A DNA stretch of 64,000 bases from IMG/VR virus record IMGVR_UViG_3300017667_000009, positions 4,444 to 68,443 of that record. One strand, written 5' to 3'. Positions 753 to 64,000 of the stretch are shown here, piece by piece (within the stretch, counting starts at the first letter, position 1; every line of letters begins with the position of its first letter). The translations under genes were made by a program, and so were the position numbers. This DNA comes from a virus. The notes beneath the pieces were generated by a model. The model made no database searches, was not told the origin of the DNA, and worked only from the letters and a program-made list of their open reading frames with translations.

Positions 753-1403
753 ATGAGAAAACTCTGGACACCAGAAGAGGTTGCGTGGCTTAAAGTCAAC
801 TATCCTGTACTGCCCATGCACAAATTGCAAGCTCACCTGAGCCGAAGCAAAGAGTCTATTTACGGGGCAGTGTACAACCTGGGTATCAAGAAATCTGCCG
901 ATTACCTGGCCTCTCCCTTCAGCGGAAGAATTACACCTGGTAAAAAGTTGGGCGGTGGCACTGTTTTCAAAAAAGGCCAAGTGCCATTCAACAAAGGCAA
1001 AAAAATAGAAACGTGGATGAAGCCCGAGATGATTGCGAAGCTAAAGAAAACTTCTTTTCAGAAAGGCCAACTACCACACAACACATTGTATGATGGTGCC
1101 ATGCGCACACGAAAAGATAAAAGTGGGCTTAGTTATCAGTATATCCGCGTTGGCAAAGCAAAGTGGGAGCTATTACATCGCCATGTGTGGCAGCAACACT
1201 ATGGCCCCATACCCGCAGGCATGGTAGTGGCCTTTAAAGATGGAAATCAAATGAACTGCCAGCCAGATAACCTAAAGCTGCTAACCTTCAATGACAATAT
1301 GCTGCGCAACAGCATACAACGATTCCCCAAAGAAGTGATAGAAGTAATCAGAGTAGTGAGTAAACTAAAACGTAAAATAAAATCCTATGAAAAACAAAAT
1401 TGA
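753..1403 (+). CDS. HNH endonuclease (HNH_3 type)
   Basis: LHRHVWQQHYGPIPAGMVVAFKDGNQMNCQPDNL motif; FKKGQVPFNKG repeats. Confidence 0.85.
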   Translation: MRKLWTPEEVAWLKVNYPVLPMHKLQAHLSRSKESIYGAVYNLGIKKSADYLASPFSGRITPGKKLGGGTVFKKGQVPFNKGKKIETWMKPEMIAKLKKTSFQKGQLPHNTLYDGAMRTRKDKSGLSYQYIRVGKAKWELLHRHVWQQHYGPIPAGMVVAFKDGNQMNCQPDNLKLLTFNDNMLRNSIQRFPKEVIEVIRVVSKLKRKIKSYEKQN

Positions 1404-1620
1404 AGACCTGCGCAACCATATGTTTGCCGCCATTGAAGAGCTGCAAGAACTAGATTCACAAGACAAAGAAACGCGCAAAGCCGCAATCGATAAGGCCAAA
1501 GCGATAGCAAGTCTTGGCAGCGTGATTGTAAACTCGGTAAAGACAGAAGTAGATTTCTTCCGTGCCGGTGGCAAAAAGAATATGGAGGTGATGGGAAAAG
1601 AGGTGCAACAGTTGGAATAA
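1387..1620 (+). CDS. hypothetical phage protein
   Basis: 77-aa ORF (MKNKIEDLRNHMF) overlapping the HNH gene end. Confidence 0.7.
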   Translation: MKNKIEDLRNHMFAAIEELQELDSQDKETRKAAIDKAKAIASLGSVIVNSVKTEVDFFRAGGKKNMEVMGKEVQQLE

Positions 1621-1695
1621 TGAACTTGAATTACCGATAACGTAGTAGCGTGTTTACGTTCGGTTTGCAATTTGAAAAACTAAAATAATTCAAGA

Positions 1696-1977
1696 ATGAA
1701 AACAAAAGAAGAAGTACTAGACGAGATTTTTTTTAAACCAGAAGTTGCTGATTGGTACAAACCAGTTTTGAAAGCAATGGAACAATATGCGGCACAGTTT
1801 AAGCAAACTGACGTAAACCCGCCTGTTATGCAAGCCGAAGGGTCGGACGTGAGCGAGGGGGCGGCAGTTGCCAGCAGTGCGGTGGGAAAAGGCGTGTGCG
1901 GTGGCTTAGATCATGATTACTACATTACAGATGATGGATTTGGTAAATGCACAAGATGTGGTAAATATGATATTTGA
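1696..1977 (+). CDS. hypothetical cassette-like protein with C-terminal Cys/His (zinc-finger-like) module
   Basis: 93-aa ORF reading through a palindrome arm; ends C..H...CTRC. Confidence 0.6.
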   Translation: MKTKEEVLDEIFFKPEVADWYKPVLKAMEQYAAQFKQTDVNPPVMQAEGSDVSEGAAVASSAVGKGVCGGLDHDYYITDDGFGKCTRCGKYDI

Positions 1978-2088
1978 GCGTGGCCTCCGTGCCAGCAGCC
2001 TTTTATCGGTCGTGCTGGCAATTGTGCATAATGAACAAATATTAGCGTTCGTTTGGCCTTATGTAAAAATTAAAAAAGAAGAAAATAT

Positions 2089-2382
2089 ATGAAGATGAAA
2101 GCAATGGCAAGTTTACTACCGCTCTATTTAGCAATGAGCGGGATGGATTATCCAGCAAAAGATGATAGCGGTAAAAGGATGCGAGATGAAGCAAGTCTAT
2201 ACGCTATGGTTAAGGAGTACAATCTTATTAAGAAAAAGCAAAGTAAGCTCTCACGCGCAAAACGTGATTATATAACGCAGCGTATAGACTTGCTGATTGA
2301 ACAGGGTAAACTTGTTAGAACAGAAAGCGGGGAGGCTTCTTTTTTAATTTTTACAGCAGAAAATAAAGAACAATCCAAATGA
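2089..2382 (+). CDS. hypothetical cassette-like protein
   Basis: 97-aa ORF lying between inverted arms 2029-2056 and 2375-2398. Confidence 0.65.
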   Translation: MKMKAMASLLPLYLAMSGMDYPAKDDSGKRMRDEASLYAMVKEYNLIKKKQSKLSRAKRDYITQRIDLLIEQGKLVRTESGEASFLIFTAENKEQSK

Positions 2383-2529
2383 TGCTAATATGTTGTTATC
2401 GGTTCGGTTTGCGGGCGCGGTGGGCAGCCAAAGAAAAAGCCTCCGTGCGCTTTGGCTGATCGTGGGAAGCAAACTGACCGATAACAATGTTATATCGGAG
2501 ACTGCTTTTTAACAGGCGTTTAAAAACGG

Positions 2530-3141
2530 CTATTTTACTAGTATAGTGTTAATTGAATCGACCTTAATCAATCGGTTTAAATTAGTTACCTGCCCCGTAA
2601 ACTGCCATCTGCTCCATTGCAATTTTAAAAACCAATTTTTCGGCCTCGATCTAGTTACGATCACATAGTAGCGATCTCTTATTTCTATCTTTGGCGTGTC
2701 AAGTACGGTAGCCTCGATGTGGTTGTATGAATCTTTGTAAAGGTATTTAAAGGCTCTGATCGAATCTTGGCAAGGTATATAGACCGTGTCCCTTAGTATT
2801 TTGTTTTCAGGCGCAAAGAATGAATCAAAGGTCGAAGCAGATTGGGTGTTTTTATGGTTCCTAAATTTCTTGATCCACGCCAGATCGTTCGACTCCAAAG
2901 CCTTTTTAAAGTTTGCCCGATCCAAAGAAATAGCATTCGACATAGTAACTAAATCACCTTCTGCATTAACATACTTTGTGCTTATAGTTTTAAAATTGCT
3001 CTGGGCTGCATCAGCTCGCTTCTCCGCTTCTATTTTTTGCACCCGTTGCGAGTTACCCCACTGGAATAAAAACCAAATAGTGGCCAAAAGAACGCCTATT
3101 GCAGCGAGTTTCCAGTTGCGGATTAAAAATTCTTGTATCAT
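2530..3141 (-). CDS. putative spanin/Rz-like lysis protein
   Basis: N-terminal TM helix plus coiled coil, directly downstream of endolysin. Confidence 0.55.
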   Translation of the reverse strand: MIQEFLIRNWKLAAIGVLLATIWFLFQWGNSQRVQKIEAEKRADAAQSNFKTISTKYVNAEGDLVTMSNAISLDRANFKKALESNDLAWIKKFRNHKNTQSASTFDSFFAPENKILRDTVYIPCQDSIRAFKYLYKDSYNHIEATVLDTPKIEIRDRYYVIVTRSRPKNWFLKLQWSRWQFTGQVTNLNRLIKVDSINTILVK

Positions 3142-26520: not shown

Positions 26521-26670
26521 TCAATGGTACTTCAAAAAATGCTTTTATAATTACTCCCCGCTATCGCTCCTTTAATTTTGTGTTACGGTCATATCTCCCG
26601 TTGTTTTTGCCAAATTCGGTTGACAATCCTATCACCCTTTCGGGCGCTGCTCTTCATAAAAAAAATTTCG

Positions 26671-26752
26671 TAGCGAGTGCGGGACTTGAACCCGCGAGGC
26701 TTAACGCAGAGGGTTATGAGCCCTCCCTGATACCAACTTCAGACAACTCGCG
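26671..26752 (-). tRNA. tRNA-Met(CAT), initiator-like
   Basis: Acceptor gcgagt/actcgc with C1 mismatch, anticodon arm gaggg-ctCATaa-ccctc, T arm gcggg-ttcaagt-cccgc; no encoded CCA. Confidence 0.85.
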
Positions 26753-28099: not shown

Positions 28100-29892
28100 A
28101 CGCAGGAGAAGCAGTCTTTCAAGGTCGCGAAGGCACTGGGTTAGCCCAAATCCTACATTGGCAAGACGCCAAGTCCATTAATGTTCCGTGGCAGCAAATT
28201 GCCATGCAGAAAGCCAATGAAAGAAGGTTGGCTCTTGAGCAACAAAAAATGCGTGATGATTATGTGGACAAGCTTAAAACCATGAAGCACGAGGGGCGAG
28301 ATTACTTTGCTGAAGAGGGAACTGCCGACATTCAAAACTATTTAGCCAATTATTCAACAGCTCTAGGCCAATCTAACGACATTAACTCCGCAGGCAAGGC
28401 CACGGTTGATCAACTCAATGAAATTCAACAAAACCAGGCTAAGCAAAAAGCTTCCGTAGAACTTGAAAAACAAGTTGAGCAATCGATAAAAGCCGACCCT
28501 TTTGCAGACGATGAATTTGCTAGTACAAAAATTAAAGAGTACAACTATCCCATAAGCAAGAAGACAGCAGACCTCAATATGGAGGGGCTTAACAACTTAG
28601 TTGGAAGTCCGCGCGTTTTCGATAAATCTAAATATGTAGAGGCCTTTGTAAAACCGATTAAGGAAATGGCCGCCACACAAAACTACCAGGGCCTAATGAA
28701 TACCCCTCTAGGTCAGTATGTGGTTATGGAAGGTAATAAGGCTCGATTCGGGACTATAAAAGACGGAAAAGCCGTTGCTGAAATTCCCGAAGGACTGATT
28801 GATGTGGCTCTAAATGAAAGGTATTCAGACAGGATTCGCTTTGACCTAGCAAAACAGCAAATTCAACAAGGTTACACCGATAAAAACGGAAACAGAATAC
28901 CTCCAGACCCAACAGTTAATGAAAAACTAGAGGGTGATTATGGTGACATACTTCAGAGGTTTAATGAAATACGCTACGACAAGCAATACGCTCCAATGGT
29001 TCGTGATCAGGTGAGAAAAGACCTTTCCGCATTTAACCAAATCACAGAAAGAGACGCTATTTCAGGCAGTATGAAATACCCCTCCGCAAGAAATGGTTAC
29101 GGAAACCAAAACACCGCCCCGAAAATAAGCGAAGGCACGGTAACACGAATCTCAAAAGATGCCAACACAGTCTTCAAAAACAACGGACTGGTAGCGGTAG
29201 AGGGGCCATCGGTCGATCTTCAGGGGATGCTAAAGGCATCCGATCGAAAACTAACACTGGCAGACAAAACCGGAGACCTGATCGGGTTCGGCCCAGATCC
29301 AAACACCGGGAAGAAATCCATTATCCTTCGTGGTAAGGAGAATAAATTCACTGGTAAGTATGATATCCAATACGCACCGTTTGATGAGGCCAACCGAAAT
29401 GCGATCGTAAAATACAACTCAAGTCTTTCCAAGGTTGCAGATGAGTACTCTAAAATGCCAGAGAAGAACTATCATGTAGACGATGAAAAGATAGACGGGG
29501 TAGTTGAGCAGATTAAGACCGCTGTAAAAGCAGGTAAGGACGATAGCGACACCACAACTAAATTGCAACAAGTGTTGAGCGAAAACGGAATTAAAGTTCC
29601 CGCAGATATGATTGAGGTGGATAAGACCATGTTTGGCAAACTGGGAACCGATGACCTGAAAATCAATGGCGAGAAGTTTCCTATGAATGAGAAGGGACTA
29701 GCAGAGCTGAGGCGCTACATAATTAACAACGACATTAAAGGCGATAATCCTAAAATGCAGTTCGTGAAGGAGAGAGGGGCTCAAAAGGAACAACCAGCAA
29801 ACAATCAAGAAGACTTTGATACCCAGTGGTCAAAACTTAAACCTGGAGAAACCCTAGTGGGTCCAGACGGCAAAACCTACAAGAAAAAATAA
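28096..29892 (+). CDS. putative internal virion/ejection protein
   Basis: 598 aa, second of three coupled genes of increasing size. Confidence 0.6.
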   Translation: MNAGEAVFQGREGTGLAQILHWQDAKSINVPWQQIAMQKANERRLALEQQKMRDDYVDKLKTMKHEGRDYFAEEGTADIQNYLANYSTALGQSNDINSAGKATVDQLNEIQQNQAKQKASVELEKQVEQSIKADPFADDEFASTKIKEYNYPISKKTADLNMEGLNNLVGSPRVFDKSKYVEAFVKPIKEMAATQNYQGLMNTPLGQYVVMEGNKARFGTIKDGKAVAEIPEGLIDVALNERYSDRIRFDLAKQQIQQGYTDKNGNRIPPDPTVNEKLEGDYGDILQRFNEIRYDKQYAPMVRDQVRKDLSAFNQITERDAISGSMKYPSARNGYGNQNTAPKISEGTVTRISKDANTVFKNNGLVAVEGPSVDLQGMLKASDRKLTLADKTGDLIGFGPDPNTGKKSIILRGKENKFTGKYDIQYAPFDEANRNAIVKYNSSLSKVADEYSKMPEKNYHVDDEKIDGVVEQIKTAVKAGKDDSDTTTKLQQVLSENGIKVPADMIEVDKTMFGKLGTDDLKINGEKFPMNEKGLAELRRYIINNDIKGDNPKMQFVKERGAQKEQPANNQEDFDTQWSKLKPGETLVGPDGKTYKKK

Positions 29893-32800
29893 TGGGCAAA
29901 AAACTCAAATGGACTCCACCGGCCGATGCAGTCGCAGTTGAGGATAATCCAGTTAAATGGACGCCTCCTCAAGATGCTGAGCCTGTAATGGCCAATGGCC
30001 TCACCGAAGAACAAGATAAGCAGAAGTCGCTCGCGGAGTTAACCACACCCAAAAAAACAGGCCGCGAAGCCGAGTTAGAAAGTGCCTCCGCCTTTGTAAA
30101 GCCTTTTGTAGACTTTGGTAAAAAGGCATGGTCAGCCCTTACCGACATGCTGCCAAGCGGGGTAGCCGCGGGCGAAGCGGGTATGATGCGCTCTAAAAAC
30201 GCATTCGAAGATAAAATTGTAAACGAAGCCTACCCTTCAACCTCAACACCAGCCGGGCCAGTGGCGCCATTTGTTACGGACGAAATGCGCAAAGCGGCCA
30301 TTGAAAACTACTCTAAAAAAGTAGGCGCAGACTCATTTCAAAAAGAAAAGCAAGGTTTTGAAGGTGCCATTGATACCCGAAAACTAGGCTTGTTAGATTA
30401 CTCCCGTCAGCAAGACAAAGAATCCGCAGAAAACACAAAAGGCGTAATTCAAGACACGAAGGATATCAAAGATATTTCGACCGCTGCATCTTACGTGGCG
30501 GGCGCAATGGGTAATGTCATCGGTCTGGCGCCAGCAATGGTAGTTCCTATATTTCCCTATCTTATGGAAAAGGGAGAAGCGTACAAAGGTGGATTGTCAG
30601 AAATCGAAAAAGCCACTGGTAAATCGGAAGAGCAAATCCTGAAAGAAGACCTCGACAAAACAGCCAGAGACAATTCAGATATAAGCGGTGCTGTTAATAC
30701 CGCCCTGGAAGGACTGGGTACTCTTTCTGTATTCGGAAAGTTCATACCAAAATCTCTCTCTGTAAAACTCATTACCAAAATATTTAAAAGCCGGTTTGGT
30801 GGAATTACAGCTGGGGCAATTGGTGAAGGTGGAACGGAAGCAATACAGGCGCTAAATACCAAACTAGCCGCTAAGATGTCAACCGGTAAGTACAATGATA
30901 TTTTTGAGGCCGCTAATGATTTGACCGATCAGGAAATTGAAGAGATAAAGCAAGAAGGATTTGCAGGTGCCGTAGGTGGAGGAGGAATGTCTGCAACATC
31001 GCAGTTAATTAGTAAAAACGAAAATGAACCGAGTATTGAACCAACAACTCAGGAAGCGCCTAGTAACCCTGTTCAACGCCCTGAAGAAGCGGCCCAACCA
31101 ACAGTTGTTCAACCAGTACAACCAAGTGCTCAAGAAGTTGCAAAACCAGTAGAAAATATTAATTTAGCACCCGATGGAAAAGAAAATAAAGTTGACCCCG
31201 AAGCACGAGGAGCACAACAAGAAATCACTGGAATCAGTCAAGAAGATGCCGAAAATGTCACCCGAGGAGTTCAAGAAGCAAGCCCAACGACTGAAGGCGC
31301 ACAGAGAAGCGAACGGCAACTAAAAAAAGATCAAGATCAGGAGCTTGAGGCCTACGCCAAGAAAACCGGAACTTTCATTGAAGATCCTAAAGAAGCGTTT
31401 GGTGAAAAACTTGCCGGTGGTGCCGAGCAAGATGTTTACCTAAGCAAAAATGGCGATAAAGTCATAAAGGTAAACGGCCTCACAAATCACGGTGGATGGG
31501 CAGACTTTTGGGATAGGCTTACACTTCAAAAAGAACTTTTCCCCAGCACTGCATATAATTTAATTGGCTTTACAAAATCAGGTGGTAGGCTGTCTGCTAT
31601 CTCAGAGCAAAACCGAATAATTGGTACCGAAGTACCCCGTCAGGAATTAATTCAAAACCTTGCCGAAAAAGGATTTTATCAAATCCACCCAGAAGGCTCA
31701 CCCGGTCAGAATCAATTCTACAATCCGGAGTCAGGTGTAAGGCTTAGCGATGTTCATAGCGAAAACGTACTGAAAGACGCTGACGGAAACATTCAGTACA
31801 TCGATCCTATGCTCGACCGCGAAAATCCTTTCGTGGATGAAGAAAGCCAAAAGTATTTCAACGAGCAGAAGGCTAAATACGCAGAAGAAATAAAACCGCA
31901 AAGCCCCTCCGCGATAGAAGGGAAAAAACCAATCTCTACAACCGATGGCAAAGTCAACCAAGGGGGGCAAGGGCGGCAAGAAGGGCTGCTAACTCCACAA
32001 GAAAAGGGAGAGGTTAAAAAAACCTCTCCTGTTTCTAATTTAGTCACCGAAGGTATTGACGACCTAAAGGAAATTGCAAAGGCAGAAAAAGCTACCCCAC
32101 TCACCGATGAGCAGGAGAAGCAAGCTATTGAAATTGCCAAAAAGTACAATAACGAAGTAAAAAATCCTTCCAAGACTGGTAAGGAAGTGGTCATAGCTAA
32201 TTCTTTCGAAGAAAGTATAAATATTGGCAAATACGGAGACAAAAACGCCATCCGTCCGGGTATGGCTAAATCCTACAAGATCAGCAAAAGCGGAACGCCA
32301 ATAGACAAAATTGCTCAAAAGGCTAGTCATTCCTTTGATGGCTCCGAAACATCTATTTCCCCTGATGATGTATGGCAATTTATGGTGGACCACAACAGTG
32401 GACCTAATACAATCTACACTCCCGCAGGAAACCCAGTACTAAAAGACCTATCAGATCAATTCACCAAAATAGCCGGCAAGGGGATTAATCGAAAAACACT
32501 TAAAGCTTTCTTGTCTAATATGGCCGAGAAGTACGGTTCTATTGACAGCGTTGGGCGTTTTGTGGATAAATATTACGTGGATGGCGTATTGGATGTTGAA
32601 AAAGTAAAAAAAGACATTGATAATGATCCTGATTTCCAAGAAAATAACCAACTTAGCGATTACGAATTTCAACTTTTAACAGAAGATATTTATGGACAAC
32701 AAGAGCAAGGCGGAGAATTACAGCCAATTCCTGGTAACCTCGATCAACAGGGCGGCAGACAAGAGAGCAAGACTGGCACAGAAGGAGGAGCGATTCAGGC

Positions 32801-35800
32801 AGAGTTTGGGGATCAGACTACAAGTGCCGAAGAGCGAGTCGCAGAAATAACTTCTCAGCCACTCACGCACGTTCCCGGCCTAAATATGGGCAAGGGGCTT
32901 GTCTCGGGCACATACCTAAGCACCGAAAAAGATAACAGGTACGAAGGCACTCCGCAGAAGGCAACCGTCAAAATAAAGAAGCCATTTGTATTTAAGGATG
33001 AGAATGCAATCATTCCGCTACGAAACAAAATCCTTCAAGAGAACAAAGATAAATTTACGGCAGACGATCTCGAGAATCCGTTTGGCGAACTCGAATCGAT
33101 AGATGACCTTAATGATGCCGGTATAGATAAGCTGGCCGAAATGGTACGTGAGCGTTTACGTACCGAAGGTTTTGATAGCGTTTACCTCCCCTCTACCGAA
33201 ACTCAGGAAGGTGAACTAATCGTGTTCGATCGTGAAAACGTAGACATTGAAGCCGGCTTGCAGAAAGTAGAAGAAGGCTCCCAAGAATTACTTGGCCCAT
33301 ACCAGTTAGAAGCCCTGCAACGGATAAATAAAGCTCAGGGAGACTTACTGGCAGCCGAAAAAGCGTACAAAGCAAAAAAAGATACCCTCGCAAAGTCAAT
33401 TACCGAAGATCAAATTGATATATTCGGTAACCGTAATGGCGATGAGGGGAAATTGTTCCAACAGAGCGCAGCAGACCGTGATCAAGTCAAAAAACAACTA
33501 GACGAGCTTCAGCGCAGAGTAGACAAAGCAAGGCAAGAACTAGAGTCCGCCAAAAGCAGTTTAAAGAAAGCAATCGAGGCCGATAAAAATAGCTTATTCA
33601 AAGATGAAAAAACCAAAAAAACAACCGAAGGAGTACCCTACCTCTCAAACCCTTCCGCCAACTACGGCACAGGTAATTCCTCCGTACAACGGAAAGATTC
33701 ACCCAGTAACGGTATCGGTTCTTCAATAAAGGCCGTTTGGAATAAGTTCAAAAACATTCAGTTTACCGGCACTACTCGGGTAACATCCGCAGCAGACGTA
33801 GCCGACATAATGAGGCTACTCGAAGATAAATCGGTAGAGCACTCATTTGCCGTTCACGTAGACCAAGACGGCAATAGCCACATTCAGTTTCTTTCCCTTG
33901 GCGTAACCGCGGGAACGGTAGTAGATGCTAAATTAGTTTTAGCAGGAGTAACCAAATTCAATTCAAAGAAGGTGTACCTGGTGCATAATCATCCTTCTGG
34001 AAATCTTGACCCTAGCCAGTCAGATATTGTCCTTACCAACAAGATAAAAAGCGGACTTCAAGACATTGGCGTAGATTCCGAGCACCTTATCATGGATACC
34101 TACAAAAAAGAGTACACTATCATAAACGGAAAAAACTCAAAACAGTATAAGCGGAAAGATCGTCAGGATGGAGTGCCATTGGAAACTCATATAATGGATG
34201 AGCAAACTATCTTAAAAGTCCCCCAAACACAAATTAAAGACTCAAGAGATATAGCCACGTTTGTCCAGCAGCTTCAGTACACCGCCATGCCAAAGAATGC
34301 GGTAATACTACTTAATATAAAAAATCAAATAGTTGGCAACTACGTGTTTCAAGATGGCATTGACCTAAAACAATTAACTCAATGGATAGGCGAATCCGCC
34401 ACCGTTATGTCAGTTGTTTTTTACGGTAATCAAAATAACACTCTTCAGGTAAATCAAGCCACGAGCACATTAAAAAACCTAGATGTTAATGTGTTGGATT
34501 ATATCGTAACCGGAAGCAACAGCCAAAGCATACAAGGGTATTATAAATCCATGAGTGACGGAACGCTCCGTGAAGATCAGGAAAAATACGGCACCAACAA
34601 TGTAAACAACCCAGACCGCAAGGCATCTATTAAAAACGCCTTACTCAAAATTGCCAAGGGATTAATTCAGTCTAAGCAAGCAACTCCAGATAACGTAATC
34701 GAAAAATTACGCGAATACCTTAAAGGAAAAAGATTTGGCGTGACTGCTAAAGAAATAGATCAGTCTATAAAATCATTTAATAGATACGATAAGGAAAAAC
34801 TCACCGAATTTGCAGAGTTCGTAAAAAAGGAAGAGGGAGATCAAGTCACTGATAAAAAAAGCGTTCAAAAAGTAATGCAAGATGTGTTTGGGCTATCCGA
34901 AGAAGAATCCCAGTCCACCGCTGAGGTTTACGATGCCGTTCTTTCCGCTATTGCCAATAGACAAGGCACAACGCTCGAAGAGCAATATCAAAAGATTAAA
35001 TTCAGTAAAGCCGATAAGGAGTTAGCTGATGCATTAGCGCAAAACCCAGCCGTTAAATACCAGATTTCACTCTTCCACTCAAGCCCATATCTGTTTGATA
35101 AATTTCGCTTGAGTGAAGTTGGCAAAGGTGTTGGTCAACAAAAACTAGGATACGGACTGTATTTCTTAGATCAGGAAGGGCCAACAAGAGGTTATGCAAC
35201 CTATCCATTTGTTTCAAAAATACTCCCTCAATTTTTCAAAAAATACAAAGCCGGAAAGATAGATGTTGCCGAACGATTAGCCTATGACTTTGGAGGTGAT
35301 CTTGCGATATATAAAAATCAGCTGGCAAAAGAGGGTAAAAAACTTTTTGGGGCGAGTCAGGCAACGAACGAGTTATCACAACTGGAATCACTTGAGCAAG
35401 AAATAAATAAAAGAGGTTTAGGCACCTTCACATACAAAGCCAGCGCCCACCAAGGCAAGTCTCCCGATCAATATGACTACTTGGATGGGAATACCCCGTT
35501 AACTGCAAAGCAAGTCGAAAAACTTGCCAACTCCGGTATTTCAGTAGAAGGCATGACTGGCCAGCAGGCGTATGATGCAATCGCGAAGGAAAGAGGAGGC
35601 CAGAAACAAGCGTCTGAGTTCTTATTAGAAAATGGAATTGATGGCATAACCTATTCCGATGAGGCTATGTTTGTAGACAAATCTCGCGCTAAAGGAAGCA
35701 AGGTTTATGTGGTGTTCGATGATAATGCGGTTTCCATAGAGGAGACAATAAAGTTTCAGCGTGACGCAGAGAGGGTCAAAGGAGCCATGCGCGACATGAT

Positions 35801-38800
35801 GAACGGACAGGCAATTATTTACGCGCTAACCAATCCAGATGTCTCCACACCGGTTCATGAACTCGCGCACATATACGAGAATTATTTAAGCTCAGCAGAA
35901 CGTAAGGATATTTTAGAATGGTCAGGTCAAAAAGAATGGAACGTTGAGACAAGCGAAAACTTTGCCCGTGGTTTCGAGCAGTATTTGAAAGATGGACAGG
36001 CGCCTAATTCCAAATTACAACAGGCATTCGAAAACTTCAAAAAGTGGCTAAATGATATCTACCAAAATATCAATCCGTCTAAGATAGAATTAAACGCAAA
36101 GATGAAGGGAATCTATGCGCAAATGACGGATGTAAAAGCGTCTGAAAATAAAAGTCAGAAGCAAAAACCAGCACCCAAATCCGCAGAAAGTAATCAATCC
36201 ATAGAATCCTCTAAAAAAGAACGGACTATTGCCAAGCGGTACCTGTCAGATGAATCCGTATCTGATGAAGTTAAACAAGGTCTTTCCCAAGAGGGCCGTT
36301 ACTACATTCCCACTACTGATTTAACTCGCCAGGCCGAAGCCGATGCATACATTGAAGAAAAAGGCATTGATCAGTCCATTGCAGATATTACAGATCCTAA
36401 CAACGGATTGTCTGATCAAAATAGAATATTTATTGGTAAGACTATTTACGCTCAGCTCAAGCAGGAGGTAAAAACATCCGAAACACCCAACGCGGTAAGG
36501 GATAAAATTAACCGGTTAGTAGAGGAAATCGCCAAACTAGGCACTAGGGCTGGCCAAACAGTGCAGGCCTTTGCCAATATGTTTGCCTCCGATGCCGAAC
36601 AAGTAGCTTACTCTCTCACAAAAGAGTACAACAAAAGCCGTAATGAGGCCCTAGACATCAACAAGGCCAATGTAGATGATCTCATTTCTTTAATCCTAGA
36701 TAAAGCCCCAAAAGAGGCGCTGCAGTCACTATTGAGCGATCCCCGAATTAAAGCAATCCTAGACGAGTCAAAAAAATCAGAAAACCTCCGTCAGTCCAAG
36801 CGTAAACAGTTCACTCAAAAAGTACTTAATAAACTTGACGAAATTGAAAAGCAGATTGATGATAGCATTAAAAGTGGCCGGGTTAATTTAGACTTTTCTA
36901 TGGGCCTACTGCCGCTGACTTACAAGGCAGCGATTAATACTATTCGGTTAGCGGTGAAAGCCGGAGATAGCCTAGCTGATGCCGTTGAGAAGGCAATAAA
37001 CGAGGTAAAGCAAAACAATAAAGATTGGGATGAGTCCGACTTCCGCAAGCAATTTGCATCTGATATTAAAGAGGAGCGCAAGGCCGATCGCAAAACCCTG
37101 TTAGAATACCTTCAGGGAGAGAGTTTTAAAGACCTGGCCATTGGGCATTACAAAACCCTAAATTCTAAAAAGCAAGAACTTCAGGAGGCGTTAGAGAAAG
37201 ATTTAGAGCCCAGTGAAGCCAAGCGATTAATGGACACGCTCGAAAAAATAGTAGGCGAAAAGCGCCAGAAGCTAATTGAGCAAAAATTTGGATCTAAACT
37301 ATCACTTCCAAAAAAGAAGAGATTGGTTAAGCAAATGGCCGACAAGATCAAAGAATTTACAGATTTAGGCGTTCTTTCCGATAAGAAATTAAGAGATGCT
37401 TATCTGGAATCCATCGAGCTCCCCGCTATCAGCGATGAGCAAAGTAAAAAACTTGAAGAGTTAGTGGAAAGAGCCGAAGCAAAGCCAATGGGCTGGCAGC
37501 GTTTCGAAGCCGTGCAGGACATTATCAGGTACCATCAACAAGTTACCCCTTTAAGTTGGGGCTCAGTGGTTGAAAGCATCTGGTATGCCAATATGCTTTC
37601 CAGTCTTTCTACCCACAAGGTAAACTTCGAGGCCAACGCAGTTCGCACCATGGCAGAAACATTTGTTTCCTCCGTGCAGTCTGTAATTGAGTATAAGAAT
37701 CCAAAGGTGGCATTCAAAAACATCTCTTTCCAACTCAAAGGTTTGGTAGAGGGGTATAATAGAAATTTGAAGGAGGCGGCTAACATTTTAAAGAATGGCT
37801 ACTACCCTGTAAAGTCAAACAAGTTCGAAGGCTTTGCGGGGGTAAAGACGTCACAGGCATCTGTTTTGGAGGTGCTTAATAAAAAAAATCCTCTCAGCTG
37901 GTGGAGGTACGTTGGCAGGTTACTAACCGCTACTGATATTCTCTTTTATGGAGGGTTGAAACACATGCGGGCGCACCAGCTTGCTTTCCGAGAAGCGTAT
38001 AGCAAAAATCAAAATACGTTCGATAAAACCACGTTAGCGAAAGCAAACGAGTTAATAGGCAGGACCTCCATTCAATTAAATGCAGCCCAAACCCGTGCAG
38101 AGTCCGAAGGATTAACTGGCAAGCAGAAGAACAGAAGGATATATGAGATCATGGAACAGTCATGGTCCGAACTTAACCGTGAAGACGCGACTAGCTTTGC
38201 GGTCAAAGGAACGTATAACCATGAGCCAGAAGGCGTAATGGGGTTATTGTCGAGCAGTATTAGCACCCTCACCACCTCAGTCCCTATCGTTAAAACAGTA
38301 GTCCCTTTTACACGGGTAATTTCTAACGTAGTTAATGATTACCTGGACTACACCCCTTGGGGACTTGTGCGCGCAGCAAAAGGAGGTATGGGAATACCAA
38401 CCAAGCCAAGCTATTCTAAGTTTACCGCAGAGGAGTTACTGAGGGAGAAGATCAAAGCCATATCGGGCTCAATGGCAATGGTTACTCTGTACGCCATGAG
38501 CCAAAGTGAAGATGATGACGAGCCCTTGCTCGAGATCACCGCAGACGGCACCGGTAGTTTTAAAAACAATTTTGAGCTGGCTAGAACTGGCTGGAAAGAG
38601 TACACCGCTAAGATAAAAGGCACTGATATTCGTTTCGATTATCGCAATACTCAATTAGCCATTCCTTTTGCTGTTATTGGTTACATCAACGATTCCAGGA
38701 AGTACAAGAAAGATGAGATGAACGATACCCAAATCGGACTTATCGTTTCAGGAACATTCCACTTTATTTCAGATCTATCTTTCCTTTCCGGAATGTCAGA

Positions 38801-39395
38801 CTTCTTTCAAATACTTAGCGATGATAAAAACTTTGGAGACAAGATCACCAAGTTTGCGGGCCGCACGATAAAAACGGGGTTGGTTCCCAATGCATTCACC
38901 CAGGTAAGCCGAAGCATTCAGGAGATCACCAATACCCCAATGAAAAAGGGGGATAGCTTCTACGCTCAGTTGTTCCGCGACTTCCCGGCCATGCGAGACA
39001 ACTTTGATACCATGTATAATACCCTGGGCGAACCGATTGTCACCGAAACTCTATACAAGTTCAACCCTCTCAAAATGTCTACAATGGCAGATGAGAAGGA
39101 AAAGGATAGCTACAAATTATGGGAGCTTATTTCCAGCACAGGAGCTTACATCGGCACCCCAAGCAAGTCCACTAGAATCTACGACTCATTAACCGGTGTA
39201 GATAGAGCCCTAACCCCAGAAGAGTATAACATATACGCTCTGCAGGCAGCCAAATACACCAAAGAGATGCTATTGATTGACTACGATGATCTAGTAACAG
39301 AAACCGATAAAAGGCTGATCAAAGATCGTATCTACCAAATCAAAGAGATGGCCAGAGAGAGAGCTAAAGGGGAATTGTTTGAGTCCATGTATTAA
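29892..39395 (+). CDS. giant polyvalent protein (kinase-like, two ART-like, JAB/RadC, zincin domains), probable ejection protein
   Basis: GGAEQDVY..DVHSENV..IDP; GTYLST..GFDSV..ELIVFD; HNHPSG..PSQSD; FHSSP..GYGLYF..GIDGI..YVVFD; HELAH. Confidence 0.85.
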   Translation: MGKKLKWTPPADAVAVEDNPVKWTPPQDAEPVMANGLTEEQDKQKSLAELTTPKKTGREAELESASAFVKPFVDFGKKAWSALTDMLPSGVAAGEAGMMRSKNAFEDKIVNEAYPSTSTPAGPVAPFVTDEMRKAAIENYSKKVGADSFQKEKQGFEGAIDTRKLGLLDYSRQQDKESAENTKGVIQDTKDIKDISTAASYVAGAMGNVIGLAPAMVVPIFPYLMEKGEAYKGGLSEIEKATGKSEEQILKEDLDKTARDNSDISGAVNTALEGLGTLSVFGKFIPKSLSVKLITKIFKSRFGGITAGAIGEGGTEAIQALNTKLAAKMSTGKYNDIFEAANDLTDQEIEEIKQEGFAGAVGGGGMSATSQLISKNENEPSIEPTTQEAPSNPVQRPEEAAQPTVVQPVQPSAQEVAKPVENINLAPDGKENKVDPEARGAQQEITGISQEDAENVTRGVQEASPTTEGAQRSERQLKKDQDQELEAYAKKTGTFIEDPKEAFGEKLAGGAEQDVYLSKNGDKVIKVNGLTNHGGWADFWDRLTLQKELFPSTAYNLIGFTKSGGRLSAISEQNRIIGTEVPRQELIQNLAEKGFYQIHPEGSPGQNQFYNPESGVRLSDVHSENVLKDADGNIQYIDPMLDRENPFVDEESQKYFNEQKAKYAEEIKPQSPSAIEGKKPISTTDGKVNQGGQGRQEGLLTPQEKGEVKKTSPVSNLVTEGIDDLKEIAKAEKATPLTDEQEKQAIEIAKKYNNEVKNPSKTGKEVVIANSFEESINIGKYGDKNAIRPGMAKSYKISKSGTPIDKIAQKASHSFDGSETSISPDDVWQFMVDHNSGPNTIYTPAGNPVLKDLSDQFTKIAGKGINRKTLKAFLSNMAEKYGSIDSVGRFVDKYYVDGVLDVEKVKKDIDNDPDFQENNQLSDYEFQLLTEDIYGQQEQGGELQPIPGNLDQQGGRQESKTGTEGGAIQAEFGDQTTSAEERVAEITSQPLTHVPGLNMGKGLVSGTYLSTEKDNRYEGTPQKATVKIKKPFVFKDENAIIPLRNKILQENKDKFTADDLENPFGELESIDDLNDAGIDKLAEMVRERLRTEGFDSVYLPSTETQEGELIVFDRENVDIEAGLQKVEEGSQELLGPYQLEALQRINKAQGDLLAAEKAYKAKKDTLAKSITEDQIDIFGNRNGDEGKLFQQSAADRDQVKKQLDELQRRVDKARQELESAKSSLKKAIEADKNSLFKDEKTKKTTEGVPYLSNPSANYGTGNSSVQRKDSPSNGIGSSIKAVWNKFKNIQFTGTTRVTSAADVADIMRLLEDKSVEHSFAVHVDQDGNSHIQFLSLGVTAGTVVDAKLVLAGVTKFNSKKVYLVHNHPSGNLDPSQSDIVLTNKIKSGLQDIGVDSEHLIMDTYKKEYTIINGKNSKQYKRKDRQDGVPLETHIMDEQTILKVPQTQIKDSRDIATFVQQLQYTAMPKNAVILLNIKNQIVGNYVFQDGIDLKQLTQWIGESATVMSVVFYGNQNNTLQVNQATSTLKNLDVNVLDYIVTGSNSQSIQGYYKSMSDGTLREDQEKYGTNNVNNPDRKASIKNALLKIAKGLIQSKQATPDNVIEKLREYLKGKRFGVTAKEIDQSIKSFNRYDKEKLTEFAEFVKKEEGDQVTDKKSVQKVMQDVFGLSEEESQSTAEVYDAVLSAIANRQGTTLEEQYQKIKFSKADKELADALAQNPAVKYQISLFHSSPYLFDKFRLSEVGKGVGQQKLGYGLYFLDQEGPTRGYATYPFVSKILPQFFKKYKAGKIDVAERLAYDFGGDLAIYKNQLAKEGKKLFGASQATNELSQLESLEQEINKRGLGTFTYKASAHQGKSPDQYDYLDGNTPLTAKQVEKLANSGISVEGMTGQQAYDAIAKERGGQKQASEFLLENGIDGITYSDEAMFVDKSRAKGSKVYVVFDDNAVSIEETIKFQRDAERVKGAMRDMMNGQAIIYALTNPDVSTPVHELAHIYENYLSSAERKDILEWSGQKEWNVETSENFARGFEQYLKDGQAPNSKLQQAFENFKKWLNDIYQNINPSKIELNAKMKGIYAQMTDVKASENKSQKQKPAPKSAESNQSIESSKKERTIAKRYLSDESVSDEVKQGLSQEGRYYIPTTDLTRQAEADAYIEEKGIDQSIADITDPNNGLSDQNRIFIGKTIYAQLKQEVKTSETPNAVRDKINRLVEEIAKLGTRAGQTVQAFANMFASDAEQVAYSLTKEYNKSRNEALDINKANVDDLISLILDKAPKEALQSLLSDPRIKAILDESKKSENLRQSKRKQFTQKVLNKLDEIEKQIDDSIKSGRVNLDFSMGLLPLTYKAAINTIRLAVKAGDSLADAVEKAINEVKQNNKDWDESDFRKQFASDIKEERKADRKTLLEYLQGESFKDLAIGHYKTLNSKKQELQEALEKDLEPSEAKRLMDTLEKIVGEKRQKLIEQKFGSKLSLPKKKRLVKQMADKIKEFTDLGVLSDKKLRDAYLESIELPAISDEQSKKLEELVERAEAKPMGWQRFEAVQDIIRYHQQVTPLSWGSVVESIWYANMLSSLSTHKVNFEANAVRTMAETFVSSVQSVIEYKNPKVAFKNISFQLKGLVEGYNRNLKEAANILKNGYYPVKSNKFEGFAGVKTSQASVLEVLNKKNPLSWWRYVGRLLTATDILFYGGLKHMRAHQLAFREAYSKNQNTFDKTTLAKANELIGRTSIQLNAAQTRAESEGLTGKQKNRRIYEIMEQSWSELNREDATSFAVKGTYNHEPEGVMGLLSSSISTLTTSVPIVKTVVPFTRVISNVVNDYLDYTPWGLVRAAKGGMGIPTKPSYSKFTAEELLREKIKAISGSMAMVTLYAMSQSEDDDEPLLEITADGTGSFKNNFELARTGWKEYTAKIKGTDIRFDYRNTQLAIPFAVIGYINDSRKYKKDEMNDTQIGLIVSGTFHFISDLSFLSGMSDFFQILSDDKNFGDKITKFAGRTIKTGLVPNAFTQVSRSIQEITNTPMKKGDSFYAQLFRDFPAMRDNFDTMYNTLGEPIVTETLYKFNPLKMSTMADEKEKDSYKLWELISSTGAYIGTPSKSTRIYDSLTGVDRALTPEEYNIYALQAAKYTKEMLLIDYDDLVTETDKRLIKDRIYQIKEMARERAKGELFESMY
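31024..31152 (+). CDS. nested +1-frame ORF A (42 aa)
   Basis: MNRVLNQQLRKRLVTLFNALKKRPNQQLFNQYNQVLKKLQNQ; A-rich upstream sequence. Confidence 0.45.
   Translation: MNRVLNQQLRKRLVTLFNALKKRPNQQLFNQYNQVLKKLQNQ
31174..31323 (+). CDS. nested +1-frame ORF B (49 aa) before kinase domain
   Basis: MEKKIKLTPKHEEHNKKSLESVKKMPKMSPEEFKKQAQRLKAHREANGN. Confidence 0.45.
   Translation: MEKKIKLTPKHEEHNKKSLESVKKMPKMSPEEFKKQAQRLKAHREANGN
32692..32850 (+). CDS. nested +1-frame ORF D (52 aa) before ART-like domain
   Basis: MDNKSKAENYSQFLVTSINRAADKRARLAQKEERFRQSLGIRLQVPKSESQK; AT-rich upstream sequence. Confidence 0.45.
   Translation: MDNKSKAENYSQFLVTSINRAADKRARLAQKEERFRQSLGIRLQVPKSESQK
33604..33729 (+). CDS. 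nested +1-frame ORF E (41 aa) before JAB domain
   Basis: MKKPKKQPKEYPTSQTLPPTTAQVIPPYNGKIHPVTVSVLQ. Confidence 0.35.
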   Translation: MKKPKKQPKEYPTSQTLPPTTAQVIPPYNGKIHPVTVSVLQ

Positions 39396-40011: not shown

Positions 40012-40902
40012 TCACATTCTATCAATCAAATGTCTGCCCGAGTTCTTCACCATCCTTTCCAAAAACAGCTTATCTCTCTTTGGTATTTCAAACCGAATGA
40101 TGTTTAAGTTCTTGTAGTACCCATGGTCCAAGATAAAAGGAAGTCCATCGAATGGAGGCCCTTCGATAATAGCTTGAGATATAAAATAGTATTTTCTTTG
40201 CTCCAAAGGATCATCAATTTGCCCAGCTAATTCCATTATTGATTCCATTTCGCTTTGATACGGGCAAAAAATAATAAGCTCTCCAAAATCACAGTTAGGC
40301 ACAATTCCGTTTACTTCGAGTAGGGTTGCGTTGCTTACGATCTGCCAGTAAAATTTCTCCCCGTCAGCGTGTTTTTTTACCTTCAGCCCTTTCTTATTTG
40401 TGTATCCGAAGCGAAGTGCATTCATGGCATCTATACCCGTCAGTCCTTCGTACAGTGGATCCACTAGAGAGCAGAATGATTTTAAAGTGAATGGCGCTTT
40501 AATGTCTCCACAGGTATTTTCTTTTTCTGCATCGGGCGTACCGCACCAAAAGTCATATTTCGGGTGAACAATGGTTTCCTTGGATATCAGTTTATAATCT
40601 ACATCGAGCACTTCAAATACTTTCTTCTCTACCAGTTTCCCCCAGGCTAATGGTCTTGCGTTCGATTCCGCGTCAATAGACTTACCCATTCTCCTCTCCA
40701 TATTGCACTCATGGATGTAGGTTGTTGCGGGGTCGCTCAAAATGGTCTCGTCCTCAATAGTAGTAGTCGCGCTCCCCACCCCTTCCTTTGGCCTTTTACC
40801 AAGTTCTTCCTTGGTCATCTTCCGGGTTCCAAAGGTTGTCAGGGCTACTATCTCGCTAGAGGTAAATGAGCCGTCTCGTAGTTTGTTGTCTAGTGTTGTC
40901 AT
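40012..40902 (-). CDS. YqaJ/lambda exonuclease-like PD-(D/E)xK nuclease
   Basis: FTSSEI, WGKLVE, GTPD...DIKAP, YWQ. Confidence 0.8.
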   Translation of the reverse strand: MTTLDNKLRDGSFTSSEIVALTTFGTRKMTKEELGKRPKEGVGSATTTIEDETILSDPATTYIHECNMERRMGKSIDAESNARPLAWGKLVEKKVFEVLDVDYKLISKETIVHPKYDFWCGTPDAEKENTCGDIKAPFTLKSFCSLVDPLYEGLTGIDAMNALRFGYTNKKGLKVKKHADGEKFYWQIVSNATLLEVNGIVPNCDFGELIIFCPYQSEMESIMELAGQIDDPLEQRKYYFISQAIIEGPPFDGLPFILDHGYYKNLNIIRFEIPKRDKLFLERMVKNSGRHLIDRM

Positions 40903-40910
40903 TTTATTTT

Positions 40911-60703: not shown

Positions 60704-60862
60704 TAGGTTTGATCCGCCAAACAAATAGTTAGATGTTTCTCACCAAGCTTTCTGAATCAAAAATAAACCCCCGTGAATCGGTGAAAGCCCGGTTAATGAC
60801 TCCTACGCATGTAGCTGTTTGTTTGGCACACGGGGGCTCTTTTTTTTATGCCAAACAAACAG
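60704..60862 (+). ncRNA. C4-like antisense/attenuator leader of the antirepressor operon
   Basis: TAGGTTTG promoter; stem 60768-60775/60829-60836 plus T-tract; 60812-60828 complementary to 60716-60731 and 60849-60862. Confidence 0.65.
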
Positions 60863-62770: not shown

Positions 62771-64000
62771 TTATCCTACCAATAGTTTAGCCGTATTCAG
62801 TTTTTGTTGCATATCGTGAATCCCTCCGTAGGCTGCCGTAGTACGTTCATCTTCGTGCCCCATCATTTCTTTCCTCAAGGCAATGGGTACAGACTTTATT
62901 CTCATTATGTAAGCAAAAGTATGCCTGGCCGAGTAAGTGGTTACAACCGGAATACCCATTCTCTCACATGCTTTCTTTACGTGGGTATTCGTAAACTTTA
63001 TAAATCGGTTCTTGCGGCTGTGTATTTGCTCCTCGGTTGTAACTCCATCCATTGTTTCAAATAAGTAAGCATCTGGGTTAAGCGATGGCCGAGAGTATTT
63101 TTTGATTATCTCCATGGCCTCGTCAATAACAGGTATTTCAATCTTGGTTTTGTCGCGCTTACGGTCGGATGTTTTTTCTCGGTTAATAAGGATAAGCCTC
63201 ATTCCCATTTCGTCAACTAAATTTCTCCACTTCAATATAAGAATATCCTTAAAGTTCATCCCTGATAGCAGGTAAGACAATTTCCAGAAGTCTACCGATC
63301 GCTGTGTGAATGGATCTTCTGCCTCATAAGTCATCATTAAATTCTTTTGAGCCTCATTCAGCGCTATCTTTCTGGCCGTGGATGCCGGGGGAATAAACTT
63401 TCTCCTTCCAAACGGGTATTTTGAAGGGTGGATGATCTGCAGTTCGTCAATGGCCCATCGGAACATCTTGCGAATCTCCCTGGTGTAAAACCCAACTGTA
63501 TTATAACTTAGCCCCTTCTCAATTAGCCACTCCTCATACTTCTCCAGTGTGTTGCTGTCTAGGTCACCAAGACTTATCTTTCCTTTAAACTCCGTCAGGC
63601 TGGTTATCACGGTGCCGATTATATTCCGTGTAGAGATTTGCCCCTTTTCGTTTGCTCTCGTTTTAAGCGTCTCCAATAAGCCCTGAACAGATTCATAGTT
63701 TCCCTTCTCTTCCATGAGGTAGGCAAAATCTGTTTTGGATATGCTCGGCCTTTGGTTGATGATAGAGGTCGCTTTATCTACCACCGCTATTAGATTGTCT
63801 CTACGGTCCTTCAATGCCTTGGAGGTATACAATTTATCAAACTCCTCCTTGAACATTGATTCTCCAGTAGAGTGATAGTAGACATCCTGCTTTTCTTTCC
63901 CGTTGCCAATCACCTTGAAGATGATCCTGAGCTTTACTGGAAACTTGCCAGTAGCCAACGGGCGTCTTGAGTCTAGTATGAGATTTATTGTGGGCTTCAT
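62771..64000 (-). CDS. int: tyrosine recombinase/integrase (Bacteroidota type)
   Basis: Arm-binding N-domain (LD.R...GKFPVKLR), SAM-like domain, GMNFKD, REKT, YSARHTFA, MGH...TT..Y. Confidence 0.92.
   Translation of the reverse strand: MKPTINLILDSRRPLATGKFPVKLRIIFKVIGNGKEKQDVYYHSTGESMFKEEFDKLYTSKALKDRRDNLIAVVDKATSIINQRPSISKTDFAYLMEEKGNYESVQGLLETLKTRANEKGQISTRNIIGTVITSLTEFKGKISLGDLDSNTLEKYEEWLIEKGLSYNTVGFYTREIRKMFRWAIDELQIIHPSKYPFGRRKFIPPASTARKIALNEAQKNLMMTYEAEDPFTQRSVDFWKLSYLLSGMNFKDILILKWRNLVDEMGMRLILINREKTSDRKRDKTKIEIPVIDEAMEIIKKYSRPSLNPDAYLFETMDGVTTEEQIHSRKNRFIKFTNTHVKKACERMGIPVVTTYSARHTFAYIMRIKSVPIALRKEMMGHEDERTTAAYGGIHDMQQKLNTAKLLVG

Follow-up and report, generated by a model that had tools for sequence, protein, structure and literature searches.

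A CALIN is a cluster of attC sites that lacks an integron integrase, and classical attC sites are used through their bottom strand. To our knowledge, no attC site has stems lying up to 1.1 kb apart or whole genes inside its hairpin. According to the accessible sections of one account of these sites (PMC2727003), attC sites conserve their extrahelical bases, the base following AAC is a G, and integron arrays show the box order 1L-2L...2R-1R, with the 5′ end of each cassette pairing over 9–11 nt with its own 3′ site. A CALIN with methyltransferase genes has been published for the Polaribacter phage P12002L, for which two attC sites were predicted "in divergent directions" and attC2 was recombined by IntI1 (PMC9892861, Qi et al. 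2023, in the sections accessible to us). Two other systems known to us through partial accounts also maintain rows of exchangeable genes: the rAID-1 arrays of gut Bacteroidales, which carry immunity genes, lie on chromosomes or mobile elements and are defined by a XerD-like recombinase gene at their 5′ end (Ross et al., bioRxiv 10.1101/471110), and the PeSL modules of T4-type phages, which consist of a sigma-70 promoter and a terminator and act by homologous recombination, with exchanges that also yield mini-circles (PMC2839356, PMC4122927).

We analysed a locus comparable to these systems in a 64-kb stretch of DNA (the window) spanning bases 4444–68443 of a 68-kb IMG/VR provirus record. The locus is a tandem chain of hairpins that begins 14 nt past the stop codon of a 77-aa phrog_2044 gene, at the 3′ end of a + strand operon facing a convergent − strand lysis block; the remainder of the window is a tailed-phage genome. 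We read it as an integron-like, CALIN-like cassette array with a distinct family of hairpin sites and a recombinase supplied in trans, and give this reading a probability of about one half. The stretch was found on freshwater-metagenome contigs from 20 runs belonging to 9 studies, one of them the probable source. The host is probably a member of the Bacteroidota, as suggested by the Phage_int_SAM_5, DUF6549 and crAss-related domains and by the similarity in array design to the Polaribacter phage; a DnaB tblastn search against phages gave no useful clue to the host. The features of the locus and its surroundings are the following:

Upstream of the array, + strand: operon with a DUF5131 gene, an ORF, an HNH endonuclease gene and the 77-aa phrog_2044 gene
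1387..1620, + strand: the 77-aa phrog_2044 gene, final conserved gene ahead of the array
1634..1641, + strand: left terminal half-site CCGATAAC, paired with 2493–2498 in the minimum-energy fold
1642..1651, + strand: joint linker GTAGTAGCGT
1652..1818, + strand: hairpin A1, arms 1652–1668/1803–1818, with an unpaired T and a G/T mismatch
1696..1977, + strand: ORF1 (93 aa), starting in the A1 loop and ending in the B1 loop with a CxxC tail
1819..1824, + strand: joint linker CCGCCT
1825..2032, + strand: hairpin B1, long type, with P1 (1825–1832/2025–2032, ending in AAT), a 5′ side hairpin (1833–1864) and P2 (1865–1876/2013–2024, with a G/T mismatch; also called by a repeat finder)
2033..2038, + strand: joint linker GAACAA
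2039..2391, + strand: hairpin A2 with ORF2 in its loop; outer stem 2039–2056/2375–2391 (read by eye; an unpaired T and two G/T mismatches), inner stem 2062–2081/2336–2355 (20/20 matches) and a further 16-nt inner pair, 2190–2205/2279–2294
2089..2382, + strand: ORF2 (97 aa, without a family assignment); the A2 3′ arms make up its last 16 codons
2395..2485, + strand: hairpin B2, short type, 91 nt, stem 2395–2412/2469–2485 with an unpaired T and a G/T mismatch; inner hairpin 2431–2439/2456–2464 within the conserved core, loop motif GCCTCCGTGC
2486..2498, + strand: right flank, AAT followed by GTTATATCGG, an orphan half-site resembling a 5′ arm and complementary to 1634–1641
2530..3141, − strand: convergent DUF6549-like gene, first gene of the lysis block and conserved right neighbour of the arrays
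Lysis block, − strand: the DUF6549-like gene, a lysozyme gene and holin-like ORFs
62771..64000, − strand: tyrosine recombinase (prophage integrase), the sole one in the window, 60 kb from the array

The region 1634–2498 consists of four abutting imperfect hairpins and two inner helices, and in the minimum-energy fold the entire chain is closed by pairing of CCGATAAC (1634–1641) with GTTATATCGG (2489–2498), two half-sites that may together represent an ancestral empty site. The original prediction, made from the sequence alone, had described four consecutive inverted-repeat pairs, and all four lie where it had placed them, as seen in the sequence and with the repeat finder (which called 1648–1659/1811–1822 for A1 and 2393–2403/2477–2487 for B2), the third pair being read by eye; the two inner pairs of A2 are additions to it. 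The single unpaired T that it had noted in three of the four pairs occurs in the first, third and fourth, and beside this place all four pairs carry a mismatch between a G in the 5′ arm and a T in the 3′ arm. The motifs gcggtggg and gcctccgtgc are indeed common to the two GC-rich units, and the ORFs start inside loops as claimed, at 1696 in the loop of the first pair and at 2089 in that of the third. Hairpin A1 encloses a loop of 134 nt with the start of ORF1, which continues across the A1 3′ arm and then the B1 5′ arm into the B1 loop; the latter contains the core motif GTGCGGTGG twice and GCCTCCGTGC once, together with the end of ORF1. The idea that genes are carried inside the loops holds in that some whole genes sit within the would-be sites, but it is partly a choice of phasing: with integron-style phasing, the sites alternate with genes that have 5′ GTT...AAC 3′ as their flanks, and the flanks here pair over 15–45 nt.

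Folding of region 1620–2500 with RNA parameters gave a minimum free energy of −279 kcal/mol for the + strand against −225 ± 6 kcal/mol for 20 shuffled sequences, none of which equalled it (z = −8.56), and −217 kcal/mol for the − strand (z = −7.49), so that the + strand fold is stronger by 62 kcal/mol. A strand-symmetric scan of the 64-kb window for GTT...AA[CT] stems returned five rows, three of them (two hairpins) within 1652–2488; the second and third pairs escaped it, having an AAT end or lacking GTT at the start. The sole Rfam match in the window at the gathering cut-off was a tRNA, the best E-values in 1300–2800 in a search extended to E = 10 were 6–9.9, and three related loci (L004, L082 and L085) had no Rfam match. 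Searching 1300–2700 by blastn against 50,697 phage records gave no match either. Group I and II introns, retrons, CRISPR repeats and shufflon or invertase sites were considered and dropped, as no matching models or enzymes were found and the arms are specific to each unit.

The same hairpin design was found again in at least eight arrays of related freshwater phage contigs and in the Polaribacter phage P12002L. The related loci that we read were L004, L085 (identical to L068), L082, L097, L099/L100, L103, L106 and L110. Pattern scanning of viral contigs yielded 26 stretches, real by eye in three contigs only; a metagenome protein scan yielded four loci; and a genome pattern scan gave four stretches, three of which were chance matches in coding genes and one real (L110). 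Reading of these loci showed that the gene-flanking (A) and spacer (B) pairs belong to one class, whose loops contain either a gene or a conserved GC-rich core of ~55 nt. The linkers between hairpins alternate, with 3–6 nt from A to B and 7–10 nt from B to A, and the base following AAC at internal joints is nearly always a G (by eye). Pairing links the arm downstream of one small hairpin to the arm that precedes the following small hairpin, in sequences that are specific to each unit. This is what the "interlocking" of the original prediction amounts to, and its arms that differ yet stay complementary are borne out by their covariation. The GTGCGGTGG motif lies behind gene ends, including that of a tRNA, and is confined to the arrays rather than spread genome-wide, for which reason a Chi-like interpretation of it was dropped.

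A strand-symmetric census of eight arrays comprised 43 stems, with ~30 distinct arm sequences as counted by eye; the 43 include a few doubtful AT-rich rows and several rows representing one hairpin in related contigs. The stems begin with GTT, end with AAC or AAT and measure 15–22 bp. Alongside 739 Watson–Crick pairs they contain 41 mismatches of a 5′-arm G with a 3′-arm T, of which 31 fall at positions 10–12 and 22 at position 11 alone; the other mismatches are 5 T/G, 5 A/C or C/A and 12 transversions. Since both kinds of transition were handled alike in the scoring, this asymmetry is real; a count of mismatches in minimum-energy structures computed without G/U pairs (18 G/T versus 9 A/C) was too noisy, and a self-blast of the arrays too coarse. 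The 5′ arm usually has an additional pyrimidine; in the census, extra bases were found 22 times on the 5′ arm against 6 times on the 3′ arm. No census stem has a Watson–Crick pair at the G/T position ~11 nt from the stem base, which indicates that the irregularity itself is a conserved feature. A fixed G/T corresponds to an A/C bubble on the complementary strand, so this feature alone does not tell which strand folds.

The small hairpins of the B2 type form a sequence family with the core GCGGTGGGC, an inner hairpin with the loop AGCYTCCRTGC, and then GATCGTKGGAA; the long type (B1) has an additional 5′ side hairpin and a loop in which an ORF can end. From 6 copies of the B2 family we built a covariance model, which retrieved 16 elements and one reverse-strand echo from 9 sources. 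The resulting alignment was fitted to that model and includes related elements; within it, 88.6% of the cells pair, compared with 69.4% in shuffles and 33–46% in slid controls, and both sides change in 24 of the 32 pairs. The small-hairpin model had a single match in the 64-kb window, and the model R1 found no match in 151 sampled Bacteroidota genomes or in two Hymenobacter genomes. One small hairpin of 90 nt is present in three copies in L004 and again in L085, with differing neighbours.

Gene content varies between these arrays, with changes at the joints. Relatives of the 77-aa gene occur at 64 loci, among which only L004 has array DNA in common with the window: there, the gene is 99% identical and the first 46 nt are alike (to 1665), after which other cassettes follow, whereas the more distant L005 (77-aa gene 79% identical) has no array. 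In the window, L004, L085 and L099, the linker GTAGTAGCGT and its arm are each time preceded by a different upstream end, four in all. L085 matches the window at 1642–1684, directly after AAC, and from 2483 onward, at AAC|AAT, with 3.4 kb between these flanks instead of 0.8 kb. The right flank from 2483 on is shared with L097 as well, and L085 and L097 end in a different last hairpin, so that this flank is joined at AAC|AAT to two unrelated last hairpins. These two loci have a similar last (DUF1643) cassette preceded by different neighbours, and L097, L103, L106 and L110 carry other cassettes. Between the window and L099, the B1 5′ arm together with the A1 arm preceding it is identical at 75 of 76 nt and the loops are unalignable; both A1 arms are ~100% conserved in L099, around an unrelated loop. 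Joints resembling GAACAA, of the form GAAC(A/G)AATATT, are present in L097 and L106, and one downstream unit was found behind three different hairpin ends. The conserved joint modules measure 27–130 nt and show ~100% identity.

Contigs from other freshwater runs reach a summed depth of up to ~300 on 1803–1869 and 2339–2472 and of ~0 in the ORF interiors. They break at 1824|1825, 1870, 2355, 2399 and 2488; in contigs from three other runs the match begins exactly at 1825, and 2399 is again a break. Since the small hairpins have breakpoints at both ends, and since the linker goes with the upstream unit in some cases and with the downstream unit in others (by eye), a single G|TT crossover is unsupported. 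Neither an empty site nor an excised circle was seen in the assembled contigs, where rare excision products would stay invisible. Instead of a fixed gene content with no junctions at GTT and no covariation, which the original prediction had named as speaking against it, we found that gene content varies, that breaks fall at GTT/AAC joints and that the arms covary.

The cargo in the loops of the arrays includes C5 and N6/N4 DNA methyltransferases, DUF1643 and DUF6527 proteins, a crAss001_48-like protein, an RNA ligase, a tRNA-Phe and small ORFs, some of them encoding a zinc-ribbon. The methyltransferase domains are preceded by leaders of 40–66 residues, and in every case read the ORFs cross the A-to-B joint in one frame. 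Fourteen aligned database relatives of ORF1 have in common with it only the 17 residues VMQAEGSDVSEGAAVAS, which are encoded by the B1 5′ arm and flanked by unrelated N- and C-terminal parts. Homologous CxxC tails occur in the long-type hairpin of the window, L097 and L103. ORF2 has two full-length relatives with 79% and 86% identity and conservative changes. Hairpin B2, which lies downstream of two stops, is untranslated.

Set against attC arrays as described in the sources accessible to us, the window shows the same AAC-spacer-GTT...AAC-spacer-GTT order on the gene-sense strand, stems that are imperfect and have additional bases on one of the arms, AAC followed by G, structure conserved above sequence, complementary cassette ends, varying cargo and ORFs that run into the site. 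The proposed likeness to attC sites is upheld by the AAC/GTT triplets, the imperfect stems, the extra base at a fixed place, the conservation of structure, the variable cassettes and the lack of an integrase in cis, but inside one hairpin the triplets read 5′ GTT...AAC 3′, opposite to attC, and the attC polarity is obtained only if sites are taken as centred on the joints. Compared with the same descriptions, the locus also has no IntI, its boxes match the consensus in GTT/AAC only, the complementarity of cassette ends extends over 15–45 nt instead of 9–11, an entire gene may lie within a hairpin, in place of the variable terminal structure there is a conserved core of ~55 nt, the better fold is that of the sense strand, and the breakpoints are not pinned to G|TT. 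The R-box consensus GTTRRRY given in the accessible part of PMC9892861 does not fit the arms (GTTATCG, GTTATGC, GTTAGCG and GTTTACG), for which agreement is limited to GTT(R). Candidates for an unpaired spacer are the linkers of 3–6 and 7–10 nt between stems or the antisense bubble at positions 10–12.

The closest described case is P12002L, which, as far as its partial description goes, also has accessory genes, for the most part those of DNA methyltransferases, in a co-oriented row without a recombinase and with AAC/GTT-bounded folded sites, at the end of an operon converging on lysis genes. The DUF6549-like gene of the window is weakly similar to gp34 of P12002L, which holds the equivalent position. 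We found the same class of tandem GTT...AAC hairpins in that phage, where four hairpins abut at 40047–40939 with linkers of 3, 7 and 3 nt, and gp35, gp53 and gp54 each lie within a hairpin; window elements and P12002L have no detectable sequence in common. Each of the cloned or predicted attC sites of P12002L ends in one arm of the hairpin around the methyltransferase gene gp35, and the two attC sites that the paper reports, in its accessible sections, correspond in our analysis to the two arms of one gene-enclosing hairpin. Those sections of PMC9892861 do not describe a hairpin chain, a fixed G/T, an extra base or a GC-rich core for this phage.

The available account of rAID-1 (bioRxiv 10.1101/471110) resembles the window in its integron-like gene array, repetitive intergenic sequences, low-GC cargo and occurrence in Bacteroidota, the phylum inferred for the window phage, a comparison made by description and not by repeat sequence; no XerD-like gene adjoins the window array, upstream of which lie the DUF5131, HNH endonuclease and 77-aa genes. 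The PeSLs, again judging from partial sources (PMC2839356, PMC4122927), resemble the window array in that short, conserved stem-loops separate the non-essential ORFs of a hyperplastic region and gene content is shuffled between these modules. They differ from the window elements, whose stems enclose genes, have GTT/AAC ends and a fixed mismatch and vary in sequence from unit to unit. A terminator and promoter scan found no intrinsic terminator and three + strand sigma-70-like sites, all downstream of the array, with a promoter search whose models leave out those of the Bacteroidota type.

A gene for IntI, Xer or any further tyrosine recombinase was not found beside an array in the 8 records searched, the window included, and PF00589 was absent from all 7 related viral records, 6 of which are fragments. 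A Pfam search of 58 window ORFs detected one tyrosine recombinase, the integrase located 60 kb away, which scored 21.6 bits with the NCBIfam integron-integrase model (cut-off 265) and is not an IntI; it also remained far under the XerC/D cut-offs. These Pfam and NCBIfam results agree with the original prediction that no IntI-type integrase is visible at the locus. Its further proposal of a cassette-shuffling system at the end of an operon fits the variable cargo, the breaks at joints and the covariation, and lacks a linked recombinase. No Y1/HUH transposase was found among window ORFs of at least 110 aa or in the array flanks, and ERF and YqaJ genes are present in one relative, L100.

We favour the integron-like reading because the arms covary within a recurring anatomy, the mismatch and the extra base keep fixed places, the cargo varies and breaks fall at joints. 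The array consists of tandem GTT...AAC hairpins, the large ones carrying a gene and the small ones a GC-rich core, and in integron terms the site from gene to gene is AAC-linker-GTT...AAC-linker-GTT, matching the 1L-2L...2R-1R order of attC. An excised circular cassette would fold its two ends around its own site, in which case pairing of the arm after one small hairpin with the arm before the next is what one would expect. We infer that units are cut and rejoined within the AAC-linker-GTT joints, on folded single-stranded DNA, by a structure-reading recombinase acting in trans, which might be the host's or the phage integrase; this would yield a set of exchangeable accessory genes, mainly with anti-restriction roles. 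In favour of the integron-like reading, the joints, as judged from the sequences, are sharp and without flanking homology, and the cargo (e.g., methyltransferases, DUF1643, DUF6527, RNA ligase, tRNA-Phe) is typical of such arrays. The G after AAC and the hairpins of the same class in P12002L, whose attC2 was recombined by IntI1, also speak for it. Against it, there is no linked recombinase, the integrase of the window being distant and generic, the small hairpins have breakpoints at both ends with a linker of varying allegiance, the stems are up to 1.1 kb apart with whole genes in hairpins, and no empty site or circle appeared among the contigs. The ~100% identical joint modules of 27–130 nt would also serve homologous recombination. 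Finally, all 16 small hairpins fold better on the ORF-sense strand, with a mean advantage of 13.2 kcal/mol under RNA parameters and of 3.6 kcal/mol under DNA parameters. This objection is weakened by the fact that the fixed G/T reads as an A/C bubble on the other strand, and a folding energy does not reveal the strand used by an enzyme.

This preference for the sense strand is accounted for by the main rival explanation, somewhat unlikely in our view yet a real possibility, in which the elements are sense-strand RNA hairpins acting as processing stalks, stabilisers or 3′-end signals, whose conserved sequence incidentally provides linkers for homologous recombination in the manner of PeSLs. Processing stalks have precedents in the RNase III sites of T7 early mRNA and of rRNA operons. 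Besides the stability of the 16 small hairpins, the energy of the whole region (−279 versus −217 kcal/mol) and the excess of wobble-type over A/C-type mismatches (46 versus 5) would follow, long-range stems around whole ORFs are ordinary for RNA, and all hairpins are co-oriented with the genes. The array-confined GTGCGGTGG motif behind gene ends, the islands of ~100% nucleotide identity between unrelated loops, the ERF and YqaJ genes of L100 and the precedent of the PeSLs in its partial account (PMC2839356, PMC4122927) point in the same direction. However, RNA function leaves unexplained why every stem starts with GUU and ends with AAC, the integron crossover triplets, and a position 11 that is never Watson–Crick is unlike simple selection for stability. 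Moreover, stems lie within coding sequence, where cleavage would cut the ORFs that span the arms, Rfam searches and the terminator scan gave neither a match nor an intrinsic terminator, and some joint partners have only AAC in common.

Mobility of the small hairpins themselves is improbable. They would be non-autonomous single-strand transposable elements of a PATE/REP-like kind, accumulated between accessory genes and moved by an HUH enzyme of the IS200/IS605 or RAYT type. The small hairpin is indeed discrete, variable at both ends and an imperfect palindrome with an extra base, the 90-nt element recurs among different neighbours (three times in L004, again in L085), and the summed depth of element pieces in other freshwater metagenomes is very high. 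Nevertheless, the searches above revealed no Y1/HUH transposase, and the elements keep to the arrays, with one match in the window and none in the 151 Bacteroidota genomes; a single transposase could not recognise cassette-specific arms through their sequence, and the interlocking of arms across genes would have no explanation. Even less probable is that the arms primarily encode a common N-terminal leader or linker peptide (e.g., a virion-targeting or protease-cleavage signal) joined to differing cargo, with palindromy as a secondary effect. The single frame in which the A-to-B joint is always crossed, the invariant 17-residue segment in 14 database proteins and the leaders of 40–66 residues ahead of methyltransferase domains agree with a coding role; yet conservation is at the nucleotide level, without synonymous change (75/76 nt), hairpins also occur untranslated (B2, after two stops) and around a tRNA, and the complementary 3′ arms are left unexplained.

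More tentatively, and with doubts about it ourselves, we consider that the locus might belong to a distinct, phage-centred gene-capture system of Bacteroidota, in which the unit is one gene or tRNA in one GTT...AAC hairpin with a fixed G/T and the enzyme, acting in trans, is not an IntI. Such units would follow one another head to tail, with exchange taking place at the joints, and each hairpin might serve twice, in recombination as single-stranded DNA and in cutting of the transcript as RNA. The operon transcript would in this way be cut into gene-sized messages with paired ends, and the in-frame joints would let N-terminal leaders and gene bodies recombine as separate modules.

If the integron-like reading is true, integron-style gene capture reaches phages of a phylum long thought to be without integrons, with a site family, and presumably an enzyme, that are not of the IntI type. 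The published "divergent attC sites" of the Polaribacter phage would then be recast as arms of gene-enclosing hairpins, and the 91-nt hairpin, with its one fixed mismatch and one extra base, would offer a compact substrate for finding its recombinase or nuclease. It would also explain how sets of orphan DNA methyltransferases and other anti-defence genes are assembled and reshuffled in freshwater and marine phages.

The array of abutting imperfect GTT...AAC hairpins and small genes contains three copies of the 9-mer GTGCGGTGG, all in gene-sense orientation:

window 1877-1885, gene-sense, 9-mer
window 1896-1904, gene-sense, 9-mer
window 2415-2423, gene-sense, 9-mer

This motif also occurs in the arrays of the related contigs L085, L097, L103 and L110, being confined to arrays and keeping the gene-sense orientation in all cases. 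It typically lies directly 3' of a stop codon (in L110, 3' of a tRNA) and is usually followed by G and then by a T-rich run. It may act as a 3'-end signal of each array unit.

Based on the window sequence alone, the loop of the short hairpin B2 (AAAGAAAAAGCCTCC) and the end of ORF2 (GGAGGCTTCTTTTTT), the 97-aa ORF in the loop of hairpin A2, are complementary at 13 of 15 positions and could form a long-range or pseudoknot contact:

window 2430-2444, B2 loop segment
window 2331-2345, ORF2 end segment

Outside the array, the 64-kb window has a single compact stem of GTT...AAC form, which contains one C/A-type mismatch and adjoins, immediately upstream, an ORF at 60848. Other genes of the virus include a tRNA-Met with a long variable region, flanked by divergent gene blocks, and, upstream of the window (L111 coordinates), a phage-encoded GroES-like protein:

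window 60817-60860, 44-nt hairpin, arms GTTTGTTTGGCACA / TATGCCAAACAAAC
window 26670-26752, - strand, tRNA-Met (CAT), 83 nt
window 29892-39395, + strand, giant ORF (3167 aa) with polyvalent-protein kinase and RadC-like JAB domains
L111 1414-1968, GroES-like Cpn10 domain protein, 184 aa

Among the related arrays, that of L106 includes a methyltransferase cassette that is broken into two ORFs at a run of nine G; the break is due to a frameshift, to phase variability of the tract or to an error in sequencing. In GenBank, the 36-kb contig L110 belongs to a Calothrix MAG. It bears methyltransferases and a DUF6549-like lysis gene alongside a phage array, and looks like a phage contig placed in a cyanobacterial MAG by binning:

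L106 8686-9337, - strand, N6/N4 methyltransferase cassette, two ORFs
L110 6155-6228, tRNA-Phe gene, cargo within one array hairpin
L110 753-781, minimal GTT...AAC hairpin, 29 nt (9-bp stem, 11-nt loop)

A tRNA-like T-arm was also seen near L085 2520-2560, for which ARAGORN made no tRNA call. The minimal L110 hairpin is the first of its array, immediately 3' of a nuclease-like gene, and may represent an unloaded entry site.
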